26,786 nucleotides of DNA from an uncultured Steroidobacteraceae bacterium (GCA_964345055.1 CAYFPW010000001.1:1-26786), one strand, 5' to 3'. Shown: positions 13,177 to 25,677, counted from the stretch's first letter. Numbers and translations: made by a program. Notes: generated from the letters alone by a model not told the origin.

Positions 13177-14787
13177 ATGAATTCTCCTGATCCCGGGCTC
13201 GCCGCGGAAATCGCGCGCCGGCGCACCTTCGCCATCATCTCGCACCCCGACGCGGGCAAGACCACGCTGACCGAGAAGCTGCTGCTGTTCGGCGGTGCGA
13301 TCCAGCTCGCCGGTACGGTCAAGGGCCGCAAGGCCGCGCGTCATGCGACTTCGGACTGGATGGCGCTGGAGCAGCAGCGCGGAATTTCCATTACCAGTTC
13401 GGTGATGCAGTTCCCGTACCTGGGTCGCATCGTCAATCTGCTCGATACGCCGGGTCACGAAGACTTCTCCGAGGACACCTATCGCACGCTGACCGCAGTG
13501 GACTCGGCACTGATGGTCATCGACTGTGCCAAGGGCGTCGAGCAGCGCACCGTGAAGCTGATGGAAGTCTGCCGCTTGCGCACGACTCCCATCATGACCT
13601 TCATCAACAAGCTCGACCGCGAAGGCCGTGCGCCCATCGAGCTGCTCGATGAAATCGAGAGTGTGCTGAAAATCCAGTGCGCGCCGATGACCTGGCCGAT
13701 TGGCATGGGCCGCTCGCTGCGCGGGATTTATCACCTGGGTGAGGATCGTATTTACGTTTACGAGGCCGCCGAGAAGGGGCGCGCCGGTACCACGCATGTC
13801 ATCGAGCGACTGGATTCGGATGAGGCGCGTGAACTGCTGGGCAACGACTGGCAGGCCTTTAGCGATGAGATCGAGCTGGTGCGCGGCGCCAGTCCGGCGT
13901 TCGACAAGCAGGCGTACCTCGCCGGTGCGCAGACACCAGTGTTCTTCGGATCGGCCATTTCCAACTTTGGTGTCCAGGAGTTGCTGACGTCCTTCGTCAC
14001 TCACGCGCCTGCGCCACTGCCACGCGCCACGCTGCAGCGTGAGGTGCAGCCGCAGGAAGAGGCGCTGACCGGCTTCGTCTTCAAGATCCAGGCCAATATG
14101 GATCCGCAGCACCGCGATCGCGTGGCGTTCTTGCGTCTGTGCTCCGGTCGGTACCGGCGTGGCATGCGCCTGTACCACACGCGCCTGCAGAAAGAGGTGC
14201 GGGTTGCCGATGCGCTGACATTCATGGCAGCCGAGCGCGTGCAGGCCGAGGATGCCTATGGCGGCGACATTATCGGTCTGCACAACTATGGCACCATCAA
14301 CATCGGCGACTCGTTCAGCGAGGGTGAGTCGCTGAGCTTCACCGGCATTCCCAACTTTGCACCCGAGCTGTTTCGGCGTGCCGTGCTGAAAGATCCGCTT
14401 CGTATGAAGGCGCTGCAGAAGGGTCTGGCGCAGTTGTGCGAGGAGGGCGCCACGCAGCTGTTCAAGCCGCTGCGCAACAATGACCTGGTACTCGGGGCCG
14501 TGGGTCAGCTGCAGTTCGAGGTGGTCGCGTTCCGACTGGCCGACGAATATGGCGTGCAGTGCGTGTTCGATGCGGTCAATGTCTACACCGCGCGCTGGGT
14601 CAAGGCACCGGATGAGAAGCGTCTGGAAGAATTCCGCGAGAAGGCCTTTGAAAACCTCGCGCTCGATCATGGGGGTGCGCTGGTCTATCTGGCGCCGACG
14701 CGGGTCAACCTGTCGCTGATACAGGAGCGCTGGCCGGATATTCAGTTCCTGGAGACACGGGAGCATCACAGTGGGTCAGCGGAATGA
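13177..14787 (+). CDS. prfC: Peptide chain release factor 3
   Basis: [46 protein letters not shown]. Confidence 0.97.
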
Positions 14788-14800
14788 AAGGGCACCCGGC

Positions 14801-16063
14801 GTGAAGGGCTGGTCGCTCAGGAATCCCGTGGTGGCCTGGGCGATGTATGACTGGGCCAATTCGGCCTATGCCACCACCGTGATGGCGGGGTTCTTTCCAA
14901 CCTTTTTCCGGCAGTACTGGAGCAGTGGCGCCGAGGTCACCGTCACGACCTGGCGGCTTGGGCTCGCCAACGGACTGGCCGGCTTCCTCATCGCCGCCTT
15001 GGCGCCGATCCTTGGCGCACTGGCGGATCGCAGCGCCCGTCGCAAGCAGTTCATGTTTGCCTGGACCGTGTTGGGCGCACTGGCCTGTATGGCAATGTTC
15101 TGTGTCGGTCAGGGGCAGTGGTTGATGGCCGCTGCATGTTTCGTACTGGGCACGCTTGGTTTCAATGGCGGTATCGTGTTCAACGATGCGCTGATCACGC
15201 ATGTGGCGGCACCGCGCGACTATGATCGCGTCTCGGCGCTGGGCTATGCGCTGGGCTATCTGGGTGGCGGTTTACTGTTCGCACTGAATGTGGCGATGAC
15301 CGTGAAGCCTGCCTGGTTCGGGCTGCACAATGCAGCCGAGGCCGTGCGCTGGAGCTTCCTCAGCGTCGGCATCTGGTGGGTGGTGTTTTCTCTGCCGCTG
15401 ATGGCATGGGTGCGTGAGCAGGATGGCGCGATGGGGTCCGGCGGCCTCGCGGAGTCGCTGCGCGAGTTGCGTCGCACGGTGCGCGATATCGTCGGCTGTC
15501 GGCCGCTGTGGCTGTTTCTGCTCGCCTATTGGCTCTATATCGACGGCGTGAACACGGTTATCAAAATGGCCGTGGACTTTGGCTTGTCGCTCGGTCTGCC
15601 GGCCTCCAGTCTGCTGGGCGCACTGCTGCTGACCCAGTTCGTGGCGTTCCCGGCCGCGATTGTCTTTGGACGGCTCGGCGAGCGCTACGGCGCCAAGCGC
15701 GCGGTGCTGTTCGGGATTGGTGTGTACGGCGCGCTGAGCCTGTATGCGCTGCGGTTGGCAAGTGTCACTGAGTTCTGGGTGCTGGCCATCGTCGTCGGAC
15801 TGGTGCAGGGGGGGGTGCAGAGCCTCTCCCGTTCACTGTTCGGCCGCTTCGTTCCGCCGGGCAGGGCGGCCGAGTACTTTGGCTTCTACAACCTGATGGG
15901 CAAGTTCGCCACGGTGCTCGGCCCGCTTCTGGTGGGCGCCACCGCGGCGCTCACTCACGACTCGCGCGCCGGCATCAGCTCACTGCTGCTGTTGTTCGTC
16001 AGCGGCGGACTGCTGCTGTGGCGGGTCAGGGTGCCGGAACAGTCGGATGCTCCCGCGGCCTGA
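14801..16063 (+). CDS. MFS transporter, UMF1/Atg22 (YxiO-like) family
   Basis: WAMYDWANSAY, ILGALAD, SALGYALGYLGG, GGVQSLSRS, FGFYN..GK. GTG 14801 chosen because AAGGG lies 8 nt upstream. Confidence 0.82.
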   Translation: MKGWSLRNPVVAWAMYDWANSAYATTVMAGFFPTFFRQYWSSGAEVTVTTWRLGLANGLAGFLIAALAPILGALADRSARRKQFMFAWTVLGALACMAMFCVGQGQWLMAAACFVLGTLGFNGGIVFNDALITHVAAPRDYDRVSALGYALGYLGGGLLFALNVAMTVKPAWFGLHNAAEAVRWSFLSVGIWWVVFSLPLMAWVREQDGAMGSGGLAESLRELRRTVRDIVGCRPLWLFLLAYWLYIDGVNTVIKMAVDFGLSLGLPASSLLGALLLTQFVAFPAAIVFGRLGERYGAKRAVLFGIGVYGALSLYALRLASVTEFWVLAIVVGLVQGGVQSLSRSLFGRFVPPGRAAEYFGFYNLMGKFATVLGPLLVGATAALTHDSRAGISSLLLLFVSGGLLLWRVRVPEQSDAPAA

Positions 16064-16643
16064 ACGTTGCAGGGTCGGCTCGCGTGGCATCGCTGCCCTG
16101 CTGCTGGGGGTGACACTGTCGCTGATCACTGCCGATGCCTTTGCGCTGCGCAGCGGTCCGCGTCGCACCAGGCCTGCCGATATGGTCGTCATCCATTCCA
16201 CGGGCGGCCCAACCTGCGACGCGCAGACCGGCCGGCTGGTCTGGATTGGTGCCGGCACATTGGCTGAGGATCTGCGCACTATCGAGGCCCATCCGCAGCT
16301 GGGCGTGCACTACATGATCGACCGCGACGGCACGGTACGCAGCAGCGTGCCCGAGGATCGGGTGGCGCATCATGTCTTCCACTTCAGCGAGCAGTCGATT
16401 GGCATCGAGCTGGTGAACGATGGCGATGGCCGGGATCCATTTCCCGAGCCACAGCTGACGGCACTGGTGCAGCTGTTGCGCGGGATCGTCCAGCGACATG
16501 GCATCCCGCGCACTGGTGTCCGGCGCCATTCCGACCTCGACCATGGGCACCTGAACTGCGCCCCGACACAATTACGCAAGGTCGACCCGGGCGCCGCATT
16601 CCCATTGGCCACCGTCATCGATTCCGTCTTCGGTGCCCGTTGA
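16047..16643 (+). CDS. Exported N-acetylmuramoyl-L-alanine amidase (Amidase_2, AmpD-like)
   Basis: VVIHST, VHYMIDRDG, SIGIEL, RHSD, KVDPG (His/His/Asp Zn ligands and the catalytic Glu). Hydrophobic signal ending ADAFA. Start uncertain. Confidence 0.85.
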   Translation: MLPRPERCRVGSRGIAALLLGVTLSLITADAFALRSGPRRTRPADMVVIHSTGGPTCDAQTGRLVWIGAGTLAEDLRTIEAHPQLGVHYMIDRDGTVRSSVPEDRVAHHVFHFSEQSIGIELVNDGDGRDPFPEPQLTALVQLLRGIVQRHGIPRTGVRRHSDLDHGHLNCAPTQLRKVDPGAAFPLATVIDSVFGAR

Positions 16644-16669
16644 CGCGAGCGCCCGCGGCAGAGAACAAT
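16640..16669 (+). promoter_or_regulatory. Possible sigma70 promoter TTGACG-N18-AACAAT for the DUF6152-ABM-cytochrome operon
   Basis: The -35 (5/6 match) overlaps the amidase stop. The -10 is 4/6. GGGGG SD-like sequence before ATG 16719. Confidence 0.3.
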
Positions 16670-16718
16670 CACCGGGCGGCGAGGGGTCACATTCCAATAA
16701 ATCCGGGGGCGATAACCG

Positions 16719-17771
16719 ATGGTCCTGAAAACTTCGCTTTGGTGTGCGTTGCTGGCGCTGCTCGCGGTGCCGGCGGCACGCGCGCATCACGGCATGGGCG
16801 GTGAGTTCGACAACAAGAAAACCATCGAGTTTGCCGCAGTCATTTCATCCGTGACATGGGCCAATCCGCACGTCCGGATGGAGCTCACCGAGGATGCCGG
16901 CAAGAGCACGGCCAAGACCTGGCTGATCGAAACCAACTCGGTTTCCAGTCTTTCGCGACTCGGGATCACCCGCGATATCGTTGCGGTGGGCGCGCCGGTC
17001 CGGGTGGCCGGATTTCCTTCGCTGACCAGCGATCGTCGTCTGTTCATGACCCACATGCTGCTGCCCGACGGCCGTGAGGCCGCGTTCCAGGACAATGGCA
17101 AACCACGCTGGCAAGGCGTGTCGGTGGGCAATGACGACAGGATCCACGGCAAGATCGTCGAGGCGGATTTCAGCAAGCGTCCCACCTCCATCTTTTCTGT
17201 GTGGACTACGGTCTACGGCAACCTCGGCAGTCACAACACCCAGCCGGCGGCCTCGGCGGACTACCCGGCCACCCCGCGCGGCTTGAAGGAAGCTGCGGCG
17301 GTCGACATGGTCCATGATCACCCGCTCAACGACTGCAAGCCTAAGGGCATGCCGGTGGCGATGTTTGCGCCGTATCCCGTGCAGCTGATTAGGGACGGCG
17401 CCAACATCAAAGTGCGCTTGGAAGAGTACGATGCCGAGCGCCTGATCGTAATGACCAGCAAGCATGACGATGCGCGTGTGGCGCCCAGTCGCTTGGGTTA
17501 TTCCACCGGCGTGTGGCAGGGCGACAAGCTGGTCGTGAAGACCACCAAGATCGACTATCGCTACCTCGGAATCCAGACCCAGCCGCTGCCGGTTATCCAG
17601 GGCCCGCGCATCAGCACGGTCGAGACCTTCCAGCTCAGCGCCGATCACAATCAGCTGAACTACACGGTGGTGATCACTGATCCGGATTACCTCACCAAGC
17701 CTCTGACCGTGAGCAAGTTCTGGCAGTACCAGCCCGGTGCGAAGATCGACCGCTACAACTGCACCCGCTGA
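16719..17771 (+). CDS. Exported two-domain protein of unknown function: N-terminal DUF6152-like domain plus C-terminal Cys-containing beta-rich domain
   Basis: Signal peptide ending ARA|HHG, then the HH..EFD and WANPH motifs I recall for DUF6152. The C-terminal domain has C.P.GMP, G.S.G.W.GD.LVV.T and a terminal Y.C. Family number is from memory. Confidence 0.65.
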   Translation: MVLKTSLWCALLALLAVPAARAHHGMGGEFDNKKTIEFAAVISSVTWANPHVRMELTEDAGKSTAKTWLIETNSVSSLSRLGITRDIVAVGAPVRVAGFPSLTSDRRLFMTHMLLPDGREAAFQDNGKPRWQGVSVGNDDRIHGKIVEADFSKRPTSIFSVWTTVYGNLGSHNTQPAASADYPATPRGLKEAAAVDMVHDHPLNDCKPKGMPVAMFAPYPVQLIRDGANIKVRLEEYDAERLIVMTSKHDDARVAPSRLGYSTGVWQGDKLVVKTTKIDYRYLGIQTQPLPVIQGPRISTVETFQLSADHNQLNYTVVITDPDYLTKPLTVSKFWQYQPGAKIDRYNCTR

Positions 17772-17808
17772 GAGCCGCGCAGATGCGGCGAGTCTGGACA
17801 GCTGAGGC

Positions 17809-18507
17809 GTGTTGGCGGTGAGGGGCATCGCCGGCTTGCTGCTTTGGCTGACTGCCGTGGTTGCGGTGGCTCAGGCACCGGGACCAGCGTCGTCGGAAGG
17901 ATTGCGCTCCGTCGCCAGCTACGTGGCGGTCGAGGCGGGGCAGGATGCAGCCGCTGCGGCGGCGCTGAAGGCTTATGCGGCGCGAGTGCGGCTTGATCCG
18001 GCGGCGCAGCGGGTGCTGCTCCTGGCAGAGATCGGTCGTCCCGGGCAGTTCGTGCTGCTCGAGTCATGGCGCGACGAGACGGCTTGGTTGGCCCATGCGG
18101 CCGCTCCTTCTCGGCAGACGCTCGAGCAGGCGCTGCAGCCGATTCTATTGGCACCGTTTGATGATCGTCTCGGTTTGCCCATGCAGCGCGAAACGCCCGC
18201 CAGCGAGCCGCGCGATGCGGTGCATGTGGTGCTGCATGTGGATGTCACGGGCACGGGTATCGACACCATGCCGGAGACATTGCGCGAAACAGCCGGAAAG
18301 GCGCTGCGAATGCCCGGCGCGATCGCTTTCGAGATCGCAACCCAGAGCAATAAGCGCAACCACTTCACCGTGCACGAGATCTGGGCAAGTCGCGCAGCCT
18401 ACGACGCCTACAACGCCAGCGCAGCGGCCAAAGGATTTCGCGCCCGCTTCCATCAGGTGAAGGGCGCCGTCTACGACGACCGCCTGTTCACGCAGATCCC
18501 GCCTTGA
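17809..18507 (+). CDS. Exported tandem ABM (dimeric alpha/beta-barrel) domain protein
   Basis: Signal peptide (...VVAVAQA). Two repeats: EIGRPGQFVLLESW...AH and QSNKRNHFTVHEIW...AY, each ending in D(D)RL. Confidence 0.75.
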   Translation: MLAVRGIAGLLLWLTAVVAVAQAPGPASSEGLRSVASYVAVEAGQDAAAAAALKAYAARVRLDPAAQRVLLLAEIGRPGQFVLLESWRDETAWLAHAAAPSRQTLEQALQPILLAPFDDRLGLPMQRETPASEPRDAVHVVLHVDVTGTGIDTMPETLRETAGKALRMPGAIAFEIATQSNKRNHFTVHEIWASRAAYDAYNASAAAKGFRARFHQVKGAVYDDRLFTQIPP

Positions 18508-19532
18508 GCCGCCAGCGCTGGGCACTCCTGGCTCTGGCGCTGTGCGCCACTTGGGTGGCGCAGGCGCGAATGGATGCATTGCCCTTGTGGGCCTATGGGT
18601 ACATCCAATATCCAACCGTACCCGATGACTATTCGCTCAGATGTCAGGGCGAACGTGCCGATCCGTGTGACCGACCCGGTGGGCTGCCGACCGATCCCAC
18701 GGAGACGCCGCGACACGTGCCGGGCAGCGAGCGTACCTTCACCGTGGCGCAGATCAATGCGCGCTACGACCCCGCCGACTGGTTTCCCGGCGACCACCCG
18801 CCGATGCCCGACGTCGTTGCGCACGGCAAGGCGTCGCAGGGCGCGCGGGCCTGTGCGATCTGCCATCTGCCCAATGGCAAAGGACTGATGCAGAACGGCA
18901 GTGTCGCCGGTTTGCCGCGCGAGTACATCCTGCAGCAGCTCGCAGACTTCAAAACCGGGCGACGACACACTGCGGATCCAAACAAGGCGAATGGTTACGA
19001 GATGCAGGCCGTGGCACGTAACCTGACCGAGGCCGAAGCGCAGGCGGCGGCCGAGTACTTCGCATCGCTCCCCTACACGAAGTGGGTGCGAGTGGTGGAG
19101 TCGGAGACGGTTCCGCTCTTCACCGCAACGATCAACGGCTTGTTTCTGCGTTCGGCGGGCAGTGATGTTGTGGCGCTCGGTCAGCGCATCGTCGAGATGC
19201 CGGAGGATACCGAGCAGACCAATCTGCTGCGCAATCCGCGCTCCGGCTTTGTCGCCTATGTGCCGGTGGGGAGTCTGCGGCAGGGCCGGGCGCTGGTAGA
19301 CTCGCAATGCACGGCATGTCACGGCGCGCAGCTGCGCGGCATGACGCTGGCGGGGGTGATCATGCCGCCGATTGCCGGGCGCTCGCCGAGCTACATCGGT
19401 CGCGCGCTCTACGATTTTCAGCACAGCGCGCGCAGCGGCGTGGCTGCAGAGCAAATGCAGGCAGTGGTGCAGGGGCTTGATGAAAAGGAAGTGATTGCGA
19501 TCGCGGCCTACGTTGCCTCACTCGATCCCTGA
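18504..19532 (+). CDS. Diheme cytochrome c (enlarged c4-like), copy 1
   Basis: Signal peptide. CAICH (18852-18866) and CTACH (19308-19322), each followed by a c4-type distal Met (EMQAVA, QMQAVV). The TTG start overlaps the ABM stop (TTGA). Confidence 0.85.
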   Translation: MSRQRWALLALALCATWVAQARMDALPLWAYGYIQYPTVPDDYSLRCQGERADPCDRPGGLPTDPTETPRHVPGSERTFTVAQINARYDPADWFPGDHPPMPDVVAHGKASQGARACAICHLPNGKGLMQNGSVAGLPREYILQQLADFKTGRRHTADPNKANGYEMQAVARNLTEAEAQAAAEYFASLPYTKWVRVVESETVPLFTATINGLFLRSAGSDVVALGQRIVEMPEDTEQTNLLRNPRSGFVAYVPVGSLRQGRALVDSQCTACHGAQLRGMTLAGVIMPPIAGRSPSYIGRALYDFQHSARSGVAAEQMQAVVQGLDEKEVIAIAAYVASLDP

Positions 19533-19554
19533 TCGGCTGCCGCTCGCCGGCGCG

Positions 19555-20589
19555 CTAGAGTCCCAGCTGCTTCAATGTTTCGCTGTGGAACTCCCGGCGT
19601 GCCTCGGCGTAAATGGGTGTTACGGCGCTGGCAAATTGCCGATGCTCGTCGGCTTTCAGTTCCAGGATCTCGCCACCTGCAGCACGGATCTGAGCCATCG
19701 CGTCTTCTTCTTCCCTGATGTGCAAATCGCGCTGGAACAGCACTGCGTCGTGGATCGCAGCGCGCATTTCTTCCTGCAGCGCGCGTGGCCATGCGTCAAA
19801 AGTTGGCCGATGCAGGAAAATTGGACGCGAGATATAAAAGTGATGCGTCGCGGTGTGGAAGCGGTGAAACCGGTGCACACCGTAGGTCACGGTATTGGCG
19901 AATGGATTCTCCTGCGCATCCAGTGTCCCAGCCTGGATGGCCTCGGGCACTTCGGAAAGATCCATCACCTTCGGTACCGCGCCGAGTAGTTCGAAGGTGC
20001 GCGCCTGCACTTTGCTCGGCAGCACACGGATTCTCATGCCCTGCATATCGGTCGGTACGCGGATCGGTCGCAGTCGGTTGGACACGTGGCGAAAGCCGTT
20101 CTCGAAGTAGCCCAGGATCCGGTAGTTCATCCCGGCTTCGATGCGCGCGGCCAGCAGTTGGCCCAGGCGTCCGTCCATGGCGGCACGTGCGTGCGCCAGG
20201 TCAGGGAAGACGAATGGCAGGTCAGTGGCACCGAGCTCTGGAACACGCTCGGTCAGATAGCTGCTCGACTGATAGCCGAGCGTAAGTACGCCCTGTTCCA
20301 CCAGCCACAGAATGTCGTCGGCTCGGTAGCCGAGATCGAGAATATTGAAGACGTACTTGATCTCGACCGCGTCGCCGAAGCGCTCCTCGAGCCGTGCGCC
20401 GATTCTCTTGAGCGCCAGACTGAAGCCGGTGGTAGCTGGGCCGTAGCCGCCCATCACGATCCGGTGGCGCTGGCCTCTCGAGCCGGAGGAGGAGCTCTGC
20501 CCCGAGCTGGCCGCAAGGGCCAAGGGCTGGCCCGCCAGTACGGACGCGCTGGTCAATGCTGAAACCTGGATAAAGCGTCGTCTCAACAT
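19555..20589 (-). CDS. dctP: TRAP transporter substrate-binding protein DctP with twin-arginine signal
   Basis: Re-called start MLRRRFIQ...ALA. ENGFRH, GMRIRV (carboxylate-binding Arg), DAQENP. No dctQM in the window. Confidence 0.85.
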   Translation of the reverse strand: MLRRRFIQVSALTSASVLAGQPLALAASSGQSSSSGSRGQRHRIVMGGYGPATTGFSLALKRIGARLEERFGDAVEIKYVFNILDLGYRADDILWLVEQGVLTLGYQSSSYLTERVPELGATDLPFVFPDLAHARAAMDGRLGQLLAARIEAGMNYRILGYFENGFRHVSNRLRPIRVPTDMQGMRIRVLPSKVQARTFELLGAVPKVMDLSEVPEAIQAGTLDAQENPFANTVTYGVHRFHRFHTATHHFYISRPIFLHRPTFDAWPRALQEEMRAAIHDAVLFQRDLHIREEEDAMAQIRAAGGEILELKADEHRQFASAVTPIYAEARREFHSETLKQLGL

Positions 20590-20749
20590 GCGTCTCACAC
20601 GCCGCGTTGCGTCTGGGGTAATGTTTACGCCAGTACAGTGTGAGGCAGCATACACGAGCGTCGGGCTGGCTCCAGATGAGGGCGCCGCCCAGATGCCGCG
20701 GGCTGGCCGTGTCGCTTCGATGACAGCGCGTATGGGGGCGAGAGGTTTG

Positions 20750-21781
20750 ATGAAGACGTTGGCGATTCTGGTGCTTGGGGCATTGCTGCTGGCATTCCAG
20801 CAACAGCTCTCACGTGATCAACAGGCAGCGCCGGACTGGGCGTATGGCTATCAGCGCTCGCTCCGCCCGGGTGATGTGGTTGCGCCACCGTGTCCTGAGA
20901 CTGCGCGACCATTTCCCGACTGCGCCTACGCGGCGACACTCCCGCCGCAGGATGGCATCAAGCACACGTTGCCGGGGGCTGCAGCCAGCTTCACGCGTGT
21001 CGAGGCGTACTACGACTTTGGTCCCGCGGATTGGTATCCGGAAGATCATCCGCCGATGCCAGATATCGTGGCCCATGGCCGCGAGTCGGCCGGTATACGC
21101 GCCTGTGCCCTGTGCCACTTCCCGAATGGGCAAGGCAAGATGGAGAACGGCGGTGTGGCGGGATTGTCGGCGGCCTATATCCTCCAGCAGATCGAGGCGT
21201 TTAGGAGCGGGGCGCGACGCAGCGCCGATCCGCGCAAGGCCAATGCCAAGGAAATGGCGCAGGTTGCGCGACTGCTGACGGACGACGAGAAGCATGCGGC
21301 AGCGGAGTACTTTGCTTCACTGCGCTGGCGGCTCTGGGTGAAGGTGGTCGAGACCGACGTGGTGCCCGCCGTGCGCGCGACCACCAACGGACTGTTCATG
21401 CCGCTGACCGATCGACCGCCGATGGCCTTGGGCGCGCGCATCATCGAGGTGCCGCAGCGGCCGCGTGATACCGACGAGCTGCGCGATCCACGGGCCGGGT
21501 TTCTGGCCTATGTGCCACGCGGCAGTGTCGCCAAGGGCGCAGCACTGGTGTCCACTGGCGGCGGCAAGACGCTGCCCTGTGGCAGCTGCCACGGCGCGGA
21601 TCTGCGGGGCGTCGGCGATATTCCGGGCATTGCCGGGCGCACCGCCAGCTACCTGGTGCGGCAGCTGTGGGACATGAAGCAGGGTGCCCGCCAGAGCCCG
21701 GTGATGGCGCCCGTGGTCGCGAGACTGGAGGTCAGTGACCTGATCAATCTCGCGGCTTTCGTCGCCTCACGCGAGCCCTGA
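20750..21781 (+). CDS. Diheme cytochrome c (enlarged c4-like), copy 2
   Basis: Start re-called to ATG 20750 after GAGAGG. Signal peptide. CALCH (21104-21118) and CGSCH (21578-21592), distal Met motifs EMAQVA and VMAPVV. Confidence 0.85.
   Translation: MKTLAILVLGALLLAFQQQLSRDQQAAPDWAYGYQRSLRPGDVVAPPCPETARPFPDCAYAATLPPQDGIKHTLPGAAASFTRVEAYYDFGPADWYPEDHPPMPDIVAHGRESAGIRACALCHFPNGQGKMENGGVAGLSAAYILQQIEAFRSGARRSADPRKANAKEMAQVARLLTDDEKHAAAEYFASLRWRLWVKVVETDVVPAVRATTNGLFMPLTDRPPMALGARIIEVPQRPRDTDELRDPRAGFLAYVPRGSVAKGAALVSTGGGKTLPCGSCHGADLRGVGDIPGIAGRTASYLVRQLWDMKQGARQSPVMAPVVARLEVSDLINLAAFVASREP

Positions 21782-21800: not shown

Positions 21801-25677
<3,877 letters not shown>

Follow-up and report, generated by a model that had tools for sequence, protein, structure and literature searches.

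The question raised by this locus is whether a row of genes for exported and membrane proteins, enclosed between prfC and valS, makes up a single redox system of the periplasm. The window, i.e., the whole stretch of DNA analysed, is 26,786 nucleotides long and represents an entire contig (C1) of G000, a freshwater metagenome-assembled genome (MAG) of an uncultured Steroidobacteraceae bacterium. G000 has a listed completeness of 91% and amounts to 1.78 Mb scattered over 312 contigs; absences in G000 are by themselves unreliable. Its nearest relative, the near-identical G207, belongs to the same genus (prfC 98.5% identical) and comprises 2.2 Mb in 10 contigs, with a completeness of 96%. An earlier note on this DNA had regarded positions 14801-21781 as an accessory block of seven genes encoding only envelope proteins and had proposed that they act together as an undescribed periplasmic redox system. 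Gene calls were checked by a listing of open reading frames (ORFs) and by Pfam and NCBIfam scans of the window, and each of the seven genes between prfC and valS was indeed found to encode a membrane protein or a protein with a signal peptide. The answer reached here is that the stretch is a mosaic: a relocatable quartet of genes has replaced a moxR-DUF58-tgpA operon in the lineage of G000 and G207 and would handle a carboxylate-bearing ligand in the periplasm. A probability of about 0.55 is assigned to this reading. The quartet, consisting of a DUF6152 fusion protein, a tandem ABM protein, a two-haem cytochrome c (cytA) and a DctP-family binding protein, is a credible candidate for an undescribed periplasmic redox module.

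The quartet would consist of two units. The first would be an operon on the plus strand, starting with the gene for the DUF6152(OB)-calycin fusion (16719-17771; secreted, 350 aa), continuing with the tandem ABM gene (17809-18507; secreted, 232 aa, with Pfam ABM matched in two stretches) and ending with cytA (18504-19532), a secreted c4-like cytochrome with two Cytochrom_C stretches and the haem-binding motifs CAICH and CTACH. Translation of the last two genes would be coupled through a 4-bp overlap. The other unit would be the orphan DctP gene (19555-20589, minus strand; Tat-exported, 344 aa with its corrected start, Pfam DctP 7e-54), which abuts the operon tail to tail.

The neighbourhoods of ABM orthologues (62-72% identity) were compared, with this protein as the anchor. 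The ABM-cytA-DctP core is present in five lineages (G000/G207, L064/65, L062/63, L067, and L060), whose core proteins are mutually 62-83% identical; they are therefore not near-duplicates. In L064/65/66, a TonB receptor gene is followed by the DUF6152 fusion (77%), ABM (72%), and the cytochrome (73%), with a convergent DctP (76-80%). In L062/63, the DUF6152 fusion (80-85%), ABM (66%), and the cytochrome (75%) follow each other, with a convergent DctP (77%) and a divergent gene for a metallo-β-lactamase- (MBL-) fold protein of about 500 aa, referred to as MBL500. The same layout is seen in L067, where no more than the 18 C-terminal residues of the DUF6152 fusion are on the contig. The left part of L060/61 contains a cytochrome, a sugar transporter of the major facilitator superfamily (MFS), an LVIVD/SBP56-like propeller, a paralogue of the DUF6152 fusion (34% identical), and an aldo-keto reductase (AKR); then come ABM (65%) and the cytochrome (73%), a convergent DctP (71%), a divergent MBL gene, and an amidohydrolase. 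An orthologue of the DUF6152 fusion thus lies upstream of ABM in four of the five lineages and a paralogue in the fifth (L060), while orthologues of cytA are 73-76% identical in all module loci. The TTGA stop/start overlap between ABM and cytA that the earlier note had reported was read directly at 18504-18507 on the plus strand, and the same 4-bp overlap is kept in every orthologous locus (L060, L062, L064/65, and L067).

It could be argued that these genes form no functional unit at all and are neighbours by descent in a variable slot, their synteny being due to the kinship of the lineages. In support of this, linkage is restricted to orthologues sharing 62% identity or more, distant homologues have other neighbours, and genomes of the genus show no enrichment for the joint presence of the broad families (DUF6152 is present in 6 of 10 cytochrome-positive genomes versus a baseline of 14 of 24). 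However, the core is kept while the flanks differ in every lineage, being a TonB receptor, an AKR, MBL plus amidohydrolase, or the pair prfC-MFS and valS. The conserved 4-bp overlap is a further point against mere descent. Moreover, L060 stems from a close relative of G000, with genes matching G000 contig C62 at 79-93% identity, but its ABM-cytA-DctP genes are found at a different site, immediately behind an AKR gene that in G207 precedes a gene of 1104 aa instead. It follows that the trio or quartet moves as a unit. Finally, G207 (2.2 Mb) contains one DctP and one ABM of the module family, along with 22 DUF6152 genes, and with single copies of DctP and ABM a repeated chance adjacency is unlikely. 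The absence of any functional unit is thus judged unlikely, and the DUF6152-ABM-cytochrome trio, together with DctP, is a conserved neighbourhood rather than a product of chance, as five lineages, differing flanks, and the retained overlap indicate.

As a side observation, a set of genes is conserved among G000 contig C62 (L055), G207 contig C2 (L154:5237-10136), and L060:79-6044. A two-haem cytochrome of the same family is here placed beside a sugar-type MFS gene, which is followed by an LVIVD/SBP56-like β-propeller and an AKR. In L060, this set is joined directly to the ABM-cytochrome-DctP trio.

Several observations weigh against the module. The linkage belongs to one narrow clade: an exhaustive search placed the module ABM proteins together in one of 244 clusters formed at 50% identity (E <= 1e-10), and G000 and G207 alone, out of 301 genomes of the family, have an ABM orthologue that exceeds 41% identity. 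Orthologues of the DUF6152 fusion at 58-70% identity occur alone or with other partners, and those at 58% (L015) and 69% (L017) have no ABM or cytochrome neighbours. For cytochrome homologues (38-51%) in relatives, no gene for DUF6152, ABM, or DctP lies closer than about 9 kb. The module cytochrome is missing from 52 of 53 metagenome loci with ABM homologues of 30-42% identity, the exception being a close orthologue. DctP, being encoded on the opposite strand, is not cotranscribed with the operon, and its subfamily also occurs without any module partner. Matches to the operon among sequencing runs come from freshwater DNA metagenomes only, among them the lake runs X1-X5, with no RNA run listed. 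Furthermore, known ABM monooxygenases require no electron partner, and the role of the cytochrome is therefore unexplained.

The picture at greater distance is similar. ABM homologues of 31-33% identity in relatives show no linkage to module partners, and around the 16 weaker ABM homologues from genomes of the bacterial family whose loci were examined, neither a cytochrome nor DctP or MBL occurs within 1.5 kb. A common redox partner of the cytochrome homologues in relatives was also looked for and rejected, as their neighbours are esterases, a sugar MFS, a xylose-isomerase-like barrel, and a dienelactone hydrolase. The gene-neighbourhood analysis that the earlier note had suggested as a check therefore gives a divided result: the core is kept among orthologues of 62-72% identity, whereas the families shuffle independently beyond that range.

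The surroundings of the quartet were examined through prfC, which was located in 37 of 41 related genomes; for 20 of these, in which prfC is 68-82% identical, the 10-16 kb downstream were inspected. In the window, prfC (RF3; 13177-14787, plus strand; Pfam GTP_EFTU and RF3_C) forms the left flank and is followed by a gene for an ATG22/UMF1-type MFS transporter (14771-16063, plus strand; Pfam ATG22 3e-60), and valS (21801-24665, minus strand; Pfam tRNA-synt_1 and Val_tRNA-synt_C) forms the right flank. The MFS gene comes directly after prfC in 18 of the 20 relatives, and valS lies 3.3-10 kb beyond it with unchanged relative orientation. The three genes prfC, MFS, and valS are a conserved backbone. 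In most relatives, the space between MFS and valS is occupied by a moxR (AAA_3)-DUF58-tgpA operon continuing from valS, with or without extra genes. In one example, moxR, DUF58, and the transglutaminase gene tgpA follow valS at L037:8874-12727, and equivalents exist in L024, L027, L032, L038, and L041. None of the 20 relatives has the amidase, the DUF6152 fusion, ABM, the cytochromes, or DctP in this slot, and the block was found at this site in three places only, namely, G000, G207, and one 94%-identical metagenome contig. Orthologues of DUF58 and TgpA were not found in G000, where moxR is matched only by a 38% paralogue, nor was TgpA found in G207, which points to a replacement of the operon by the cluster. 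The term accessory, which the earlier note had applied to the block from 14801 to 21781, accordingly holds for 16047-21781, where the slot varies, but not for the MFS gene.

The same comparison bears on the proposal that all seven genes (MFS, amidase, DUF6152 fusion, ABM, cytA, DctP, and cytB) are one accessory periplasmic redox system. The genes are contiguous, all encode envelope proteins, and their order is repeated in the 94%-identical contig. However, 18 of 20 relatives have the MFS gene behind prfC but lack the rest. The amidase gene (16047-16643, plus strand; Pfam Amidase_2 4e-25), which overlaps the MFS stop by 17 bp and encodes a secreted AmpD/AmiD-like protein with a signal peptide, is missing from G207, where about 45 nt of its 3′ end are kept just upstream of the DUF6152 fusion (L013:6770-6920, in G207). 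This remnant marks a recent deletion, and the amidase is therefore a dispensable passenger; it has no match at this slot in other relatives and is absent from all other module loci. The last gene, cytB (20750-21781, plus strand; 343 aa), encodes a two-haem cytochrome paralogous to cytA (48% identical). It is specific to the G000/G207 lineage, and in L060, L062, and L067 its position is taken by the MBL-fold gene of about 500 aa. The seven-gene system is hence already contradicted by synteny and is hardly tenable. The amidase and cytB are lineage-specific additions to the quartet, and MBL500 is its usual fifth member elsewhere.

A genomic island or mobile element was considered as well. The earlier note had seen no integrase or terminal repeats. 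The Pfam scan of the window likewise gave no integrase or transposase gene, there are no meaningful flanking repeats, and a shift in composition was not seen, the GC content of the block being 0.62-0.65 versus 0.63-0.68 in the flanks. On these findings, such an element was rejected.

The tandem ABM protein is the candidate catalyst of the module. It matches ABM (PF03992) with 66.6 bits (cut-off, 23.1) in two stretches, and in its AF2 model (pLDDT 91.4) two ferredoxin-like halves are joined into one barrel. The best folds retrieved by Foldseek are the tandem-ABM “putative monooxygenases” 3mcs (TM 0.75) and 3f44, the anthrone-oxidase-like 5f9p, and PenE (9kdp), whereas chlorite-dismutase-like proteins, sulfur oxygenase reductase, and HmoB are more distant matches. 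The protein is 9-15% identical to any solved ABM protein. By its two Pfam ABM stretches and its tandem ferredoxin-like barrel, it resembles the cofactor-independent monooxygenases of the ABM fold, such as YgiN, ActVA-Orf6, the anthrone oxidases, and PenE; unlike these, it is secreted, bearing a signal peptide, and its translation is coupled to that of a two-haem cytochrome c.

An alternative role for this barrel would be the binding or degradation of haem, as in IsdG/HmoB or Cld/DyP-like proteins, so that ABM and the cytochrome would act after a TonB-dependent receptor in acquiring iron or haem. The fold does resemble HmoB with haem, chlorite-dismutase-like proteins, and coprohaem decarboxylases (Foldseek E ~1e-6), His143 and His185 of ABM are invariant, and a TonB receptor gene lies directly upstream of the module in L064. 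Nevertheless, tandem ABM proteins without a cofactor match the structure best, the TonB receptor is found in one of the five lineages, and no iron-uptake genes occur in the cluster. Such a role is considered very unlikely.

Secreted tandem ABM proteins fall into about 240 clusters at 50% identity. Among the 53 metagenome loci with ABM homologues, recurrent partners are a convergent MBL500 (L102, L104, and L112) and short DUF6152 genes (L102, L105, L112, and L117), so that all three families meet in L102 and L112; TctC binding proteins are found near ABM homologues in six loci, several of them syntenic. At L092:1803-4589, a distant secreted tandem-ABM homologue adjoins a thiamine-pyrophosphate- (TPP-) dependent enzyme with a Tat signal and a one-haem cytochrome c, and at L070:805-4369 another adjoins a protein of 956 aa with six CxxCH motifs and a P460-like domain.

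The presumed electron partner, cytA, is an exported protein with two class-I cytochrome c domains, two CxxCH motifs, and an N-terminal pair of Cys residues. Its best matches in the PDB are TsdBA (5lo9) and the cytochromes c4, and it remains far below the NCBIfam equivalog cut-offs for PdsA and c4, the best score being that for PdsA (44 bits versus 330). CytA is similar to the c4/TsdB-type carriers, exemplified by TsdBA, in being a periplasmic two-haem protein encoded with a presumed catalytic partner. It differs from them in its length of about 340 aa, an extra N-terminal segment bearing the Cys pair, and an insert between the two domains. CytB is the nearest paralogue of the module cytochrome and is sister to the clade of the module cytA proteins (support 95/93).

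The DUF6152 fusion protein scores 56.1 bits against DUF6152 (PF19649; gathering score, 27) in its N-terminal part, and its C-terminal calycin-like domain belongs to no Pfam family. The AF2 model (pLDDT 89.8) shows an N-terminal OB fold followed by a C-terminal barrel of the calycin/FABP type. In an alignment of 29 homologues, His23-His24, N49-P50-H51, Cys206, and Cys348 are invariant; the two Cys residues are located in the C-terminal barrel, and the His pair corresponds to the mature N-terminus according to a predicted cleavage site, in a region where the model confidence is below 50. A Foldseek search against the PDB gave no match at E <= 0.001, with weak matches to CRABP barrels and OB folds, and therefore no function can be transferred to this protein. 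The OB domain weakly matches the OB domains of SSB, PolD, and LysRS. With its predicted His-His mature N-terminus, invariant along with the N-P-H motif, the fusion recalls the histidine-brace copper proteins, namely, lytic polysaccharide monooxygenases (LPMO), CopC, and PmoD. These proteins, however, are Ig/cupredoxin-like β-sandwiches, whereas the fusion is modelled as an OB barrel, and its membership in that group was rejected on the basis of the fold.

DUF6152 is expanded in these bacteria, with 25 matches in G000, 22 in G207, 53 in G003, and 57 in G032, and it was not found in 14 model genomes. On G000 contigs C17, C37, C57, C74, C95, and C114, DUF6152 genes are present as fusions or as separate OB and calycin genes. 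Paralogues adjoin TonB receptors, purple-acid-phosphatase-like proteins, a secreted zinc-dependent alcohol dehydrogenase, and an AKR. A literature search for “DUF6152” retrieved no papers.

The fourth member, DctP, is a clear representative of its family (PF03480, 183 bits; NCBIfam TRAP_S1, 132 bits versus a cut-off of 50). It is about 35-40% identical to solved TRAP binding proteins, with 4p9k as the best match, and among close homologues the motifs FENGFRH, which includes the carboxylate-binding Arg, and DAQENPF are invariant, with 111 of 116 also having an RR motif. Neither G000 nor G207 encodes another DctP. No match to the membrane subunits DctQ (PF04290) and DctM (PF06808) was obtained in G000 or in the 96%-complete G207, and no DctM was found in G731, a Vicinamibacterales genome with a 70%-identical DctP orthologue. 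In four further genomes, DctM lies more than 100 kb from DctP or on other contigs, and it was never adjacent to DctP in the members of the subfamily examined. DctP is thus a genuine orphan, a binding protein without a transporter. It shares with the TRAP transporters (DctPQM) the family and the Arg of the NGFRH motif. It departs from them in its Tat signal, in the lack of detectable DctQ and DctM, and in its neighbours, which are enzymes and a cytochrome instead of membrane subunits. Its assignment to a TRAP transporter was rejected on the failure to find DctQ and DctM in either genome.

Close homologues of this DctP amount to roughly 7,500. Those with 67-78% identity number in the thousands in soil and freshwater metagenomes and extend across phyla, including a Vicinamibacterales MAG. 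A close orthologue was found in none of 400 sampled genomes of the class and in 5 of 151 of that acidobacterial order. A survey of Acidobacteria revealed DctP orthologues (53-69% identity) without module partners. In two loci (L139:5266-8038 and L141:5111-8038), one in a Vicinamibacterales MAG and the other on a second metagenome contig, a 69-75%-identical Tat-DctP is divergent from a ttdA/ttdB-like fumarase and a carrier of the DASS family. To judge from this gene arrangement, DctP may there be a binding protein serving a non-TRAP transporter.

The quartet's DctP might, by extension, be an ordinary uptake protein whose partner is unassembled or is a non-TRAP secondary transporter, with the ABM-cytochrome pair unrelated to it. 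Its ligand-binding Arg and QENP motifs are intact, the fumarase and DASS genes of the two Acidobacteria-type loci would fit uptake, and there is a precedent in a TAXI binding protein described as working with the non-TRAP carrier GltS (PMC12344293). On the other hand, no DctQ or DctM was found in the 10 contigs of G207, and the module loci share no transporter gene beside DctP. The MFS transporter, the one carrier encoded nearby, is part of the backbone in relatives without DctP, and Tat export combined with 67-78% identity across phyla is unusual for a TRAP binding protein. Ordinary uptake is therefore regarded as quite unlikely here, and a role of DctP within the periplasmic module is preferred.

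MBL-fold proteins are recurrent companions of this DctP subfamily. MBL500 is associated with DctP in L060, L062, L067, and L143, and a shorter protein of about 300 aa (MBL300) in L140, L142, and L143. At L140:7001-8936, L142:7001-8936, and L143:5367-9007, DctP is followed by an overlapping MBL300 gene. In L143, a divergent MBL of 496 aa beside DctP is 69% identical to the module-linked MBL500, and in L140 and L142 DctP is divergent from a calycin-domain protein. An orthologue of MBL500 (62%) is encoded elsewhere in G000 and G207, beside another DUF6152 fusion; on G207 contig C5, MBL500 is accompanied by a DUF6152 fusion and a cytochrome of the module family. The MBL protein gives a subthreshold match to SoxH-like “quinoprotein relay” models (38 bits versus a cut-off of 280). 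A quinoprotein relay system dependent on pyrroloquinoline quinone (PQQ) was rejected, given this score and the fact that no PQQ enzyme is encoded in the block or in the module loci. A sulfur-compound reading, built on the likeness of MBL to SoxH, of the cytochrome to TsdB, of ABM to sulfur oxygenase reductase, and of the propeller to methanethiol oxidase, was likewise set aside as speculation, all these matches being far below the family thresholds.

Taken together, the gene content suggests that the quartet may be a redox module of the periplasm that has its own cytochrome and is supplemented by an accessory binding protein. Its substrate would be a carboxylate-bearing, partly hydrophobic small molecule present in the periplasm. 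DctP, for which the genome revealed no membrane partner, would act as a ligand receptor or presenter, and not as a transporter subunit. The OB-calycin protein would serve as a carrier of the ligand or of a metal. Catalysis of an oxidative step, or else the holding of a cofactor, would fall to the ABM barrel, and the cytochrome would function as a stoichiometric electron partner of ABM, with electrons presumably flowing towards the respiratory chain. The proteins might associate in a physical complex.

A broader proposal can be put forward tentatively, with the odds still clearly against it. According to this, the Tat-DctP subfamily would represent the ligand-presenting subunit of a modular set of periplasmic enzymes instead of a transport component and would thus define a new binding-protein-dependent pathway. 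The set would include MBL-fold hydrolases, the secreted ABM oxygenase together with a two-haem cytochrome dedicated to it, and carriers of the DUF6152/calycin type, and a carboxylate-bearing compound would be processed by them outside the cytoplasm.

The literature searched contains no described pathway of this composition and nothing relevant on a periplasmic ABM protein with a cytochrome or on an orphan Tat-exported DctP. Look-ups of the DUF6152 fusion, ABM, and cytA in the ESM Atlas returned unnamed or generically named clusters only. One of the nearest parallels is the methanol dehydrogenase cluster mxaFJGI, in which MxaJ, an orphan protein resembling binding proteins, is encoded beside a periplasmic dehydrogenase and its dedicated cytochrome cL. 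As in that cluster, a transporter-less homologue of a binding protein would here accompany a periplasmic redox enzyme and the c-type cytochrome dedicated to that enzyme; in contrast to it, a PQQ dehydrogenase is missing, the binding protein is of the DctP family, and the candidate catalyst is an ABM barrel. The families of DUF6152, secreted tandem ABM, and orphan DctP are each without a tested function, and the cluster, if it functions as envisaged, would be an entry point to all three and would add a case of a TRAP-type binding protein serving periplasmic enzymes and not a transporter. The hosts are uncultured freshwater Gammaproteobacteria, and the practical value of the cluster lies in providing a short, testable set of genes for heterologous expression.

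Some minor features of the locus complete the description. An Rfam search of the stretch gave no RNA elements. A promoter had been suggested in the earlier note upstream of the DUF6152 fusion gene. The site does exist on the plus strand at 16640-16669, as a sigma-70-like pair of hexamers (TTGACG-18-AACAAT, 9 of 12 matches), but it is at chance level, with one site versus 1.3 expected in shuffled sequences; the pair is identical in G207, a relative too close to be informative. As regards the starts of the two divergent genes, that of DctP is most likely at 20589 (MLRRRF, with the Tat motif, giving 344 aa as in the orthologues) and not at 20655, and that of cytB most likely at 20750 (MKTLAIL, giving 343 aa, as called in the 94%-identical contig) and not at 20588. 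With these corrected starts, DctP and cytB do not overlap and are separated by a divergent intergenic gap of 160 bp (20590-20749).

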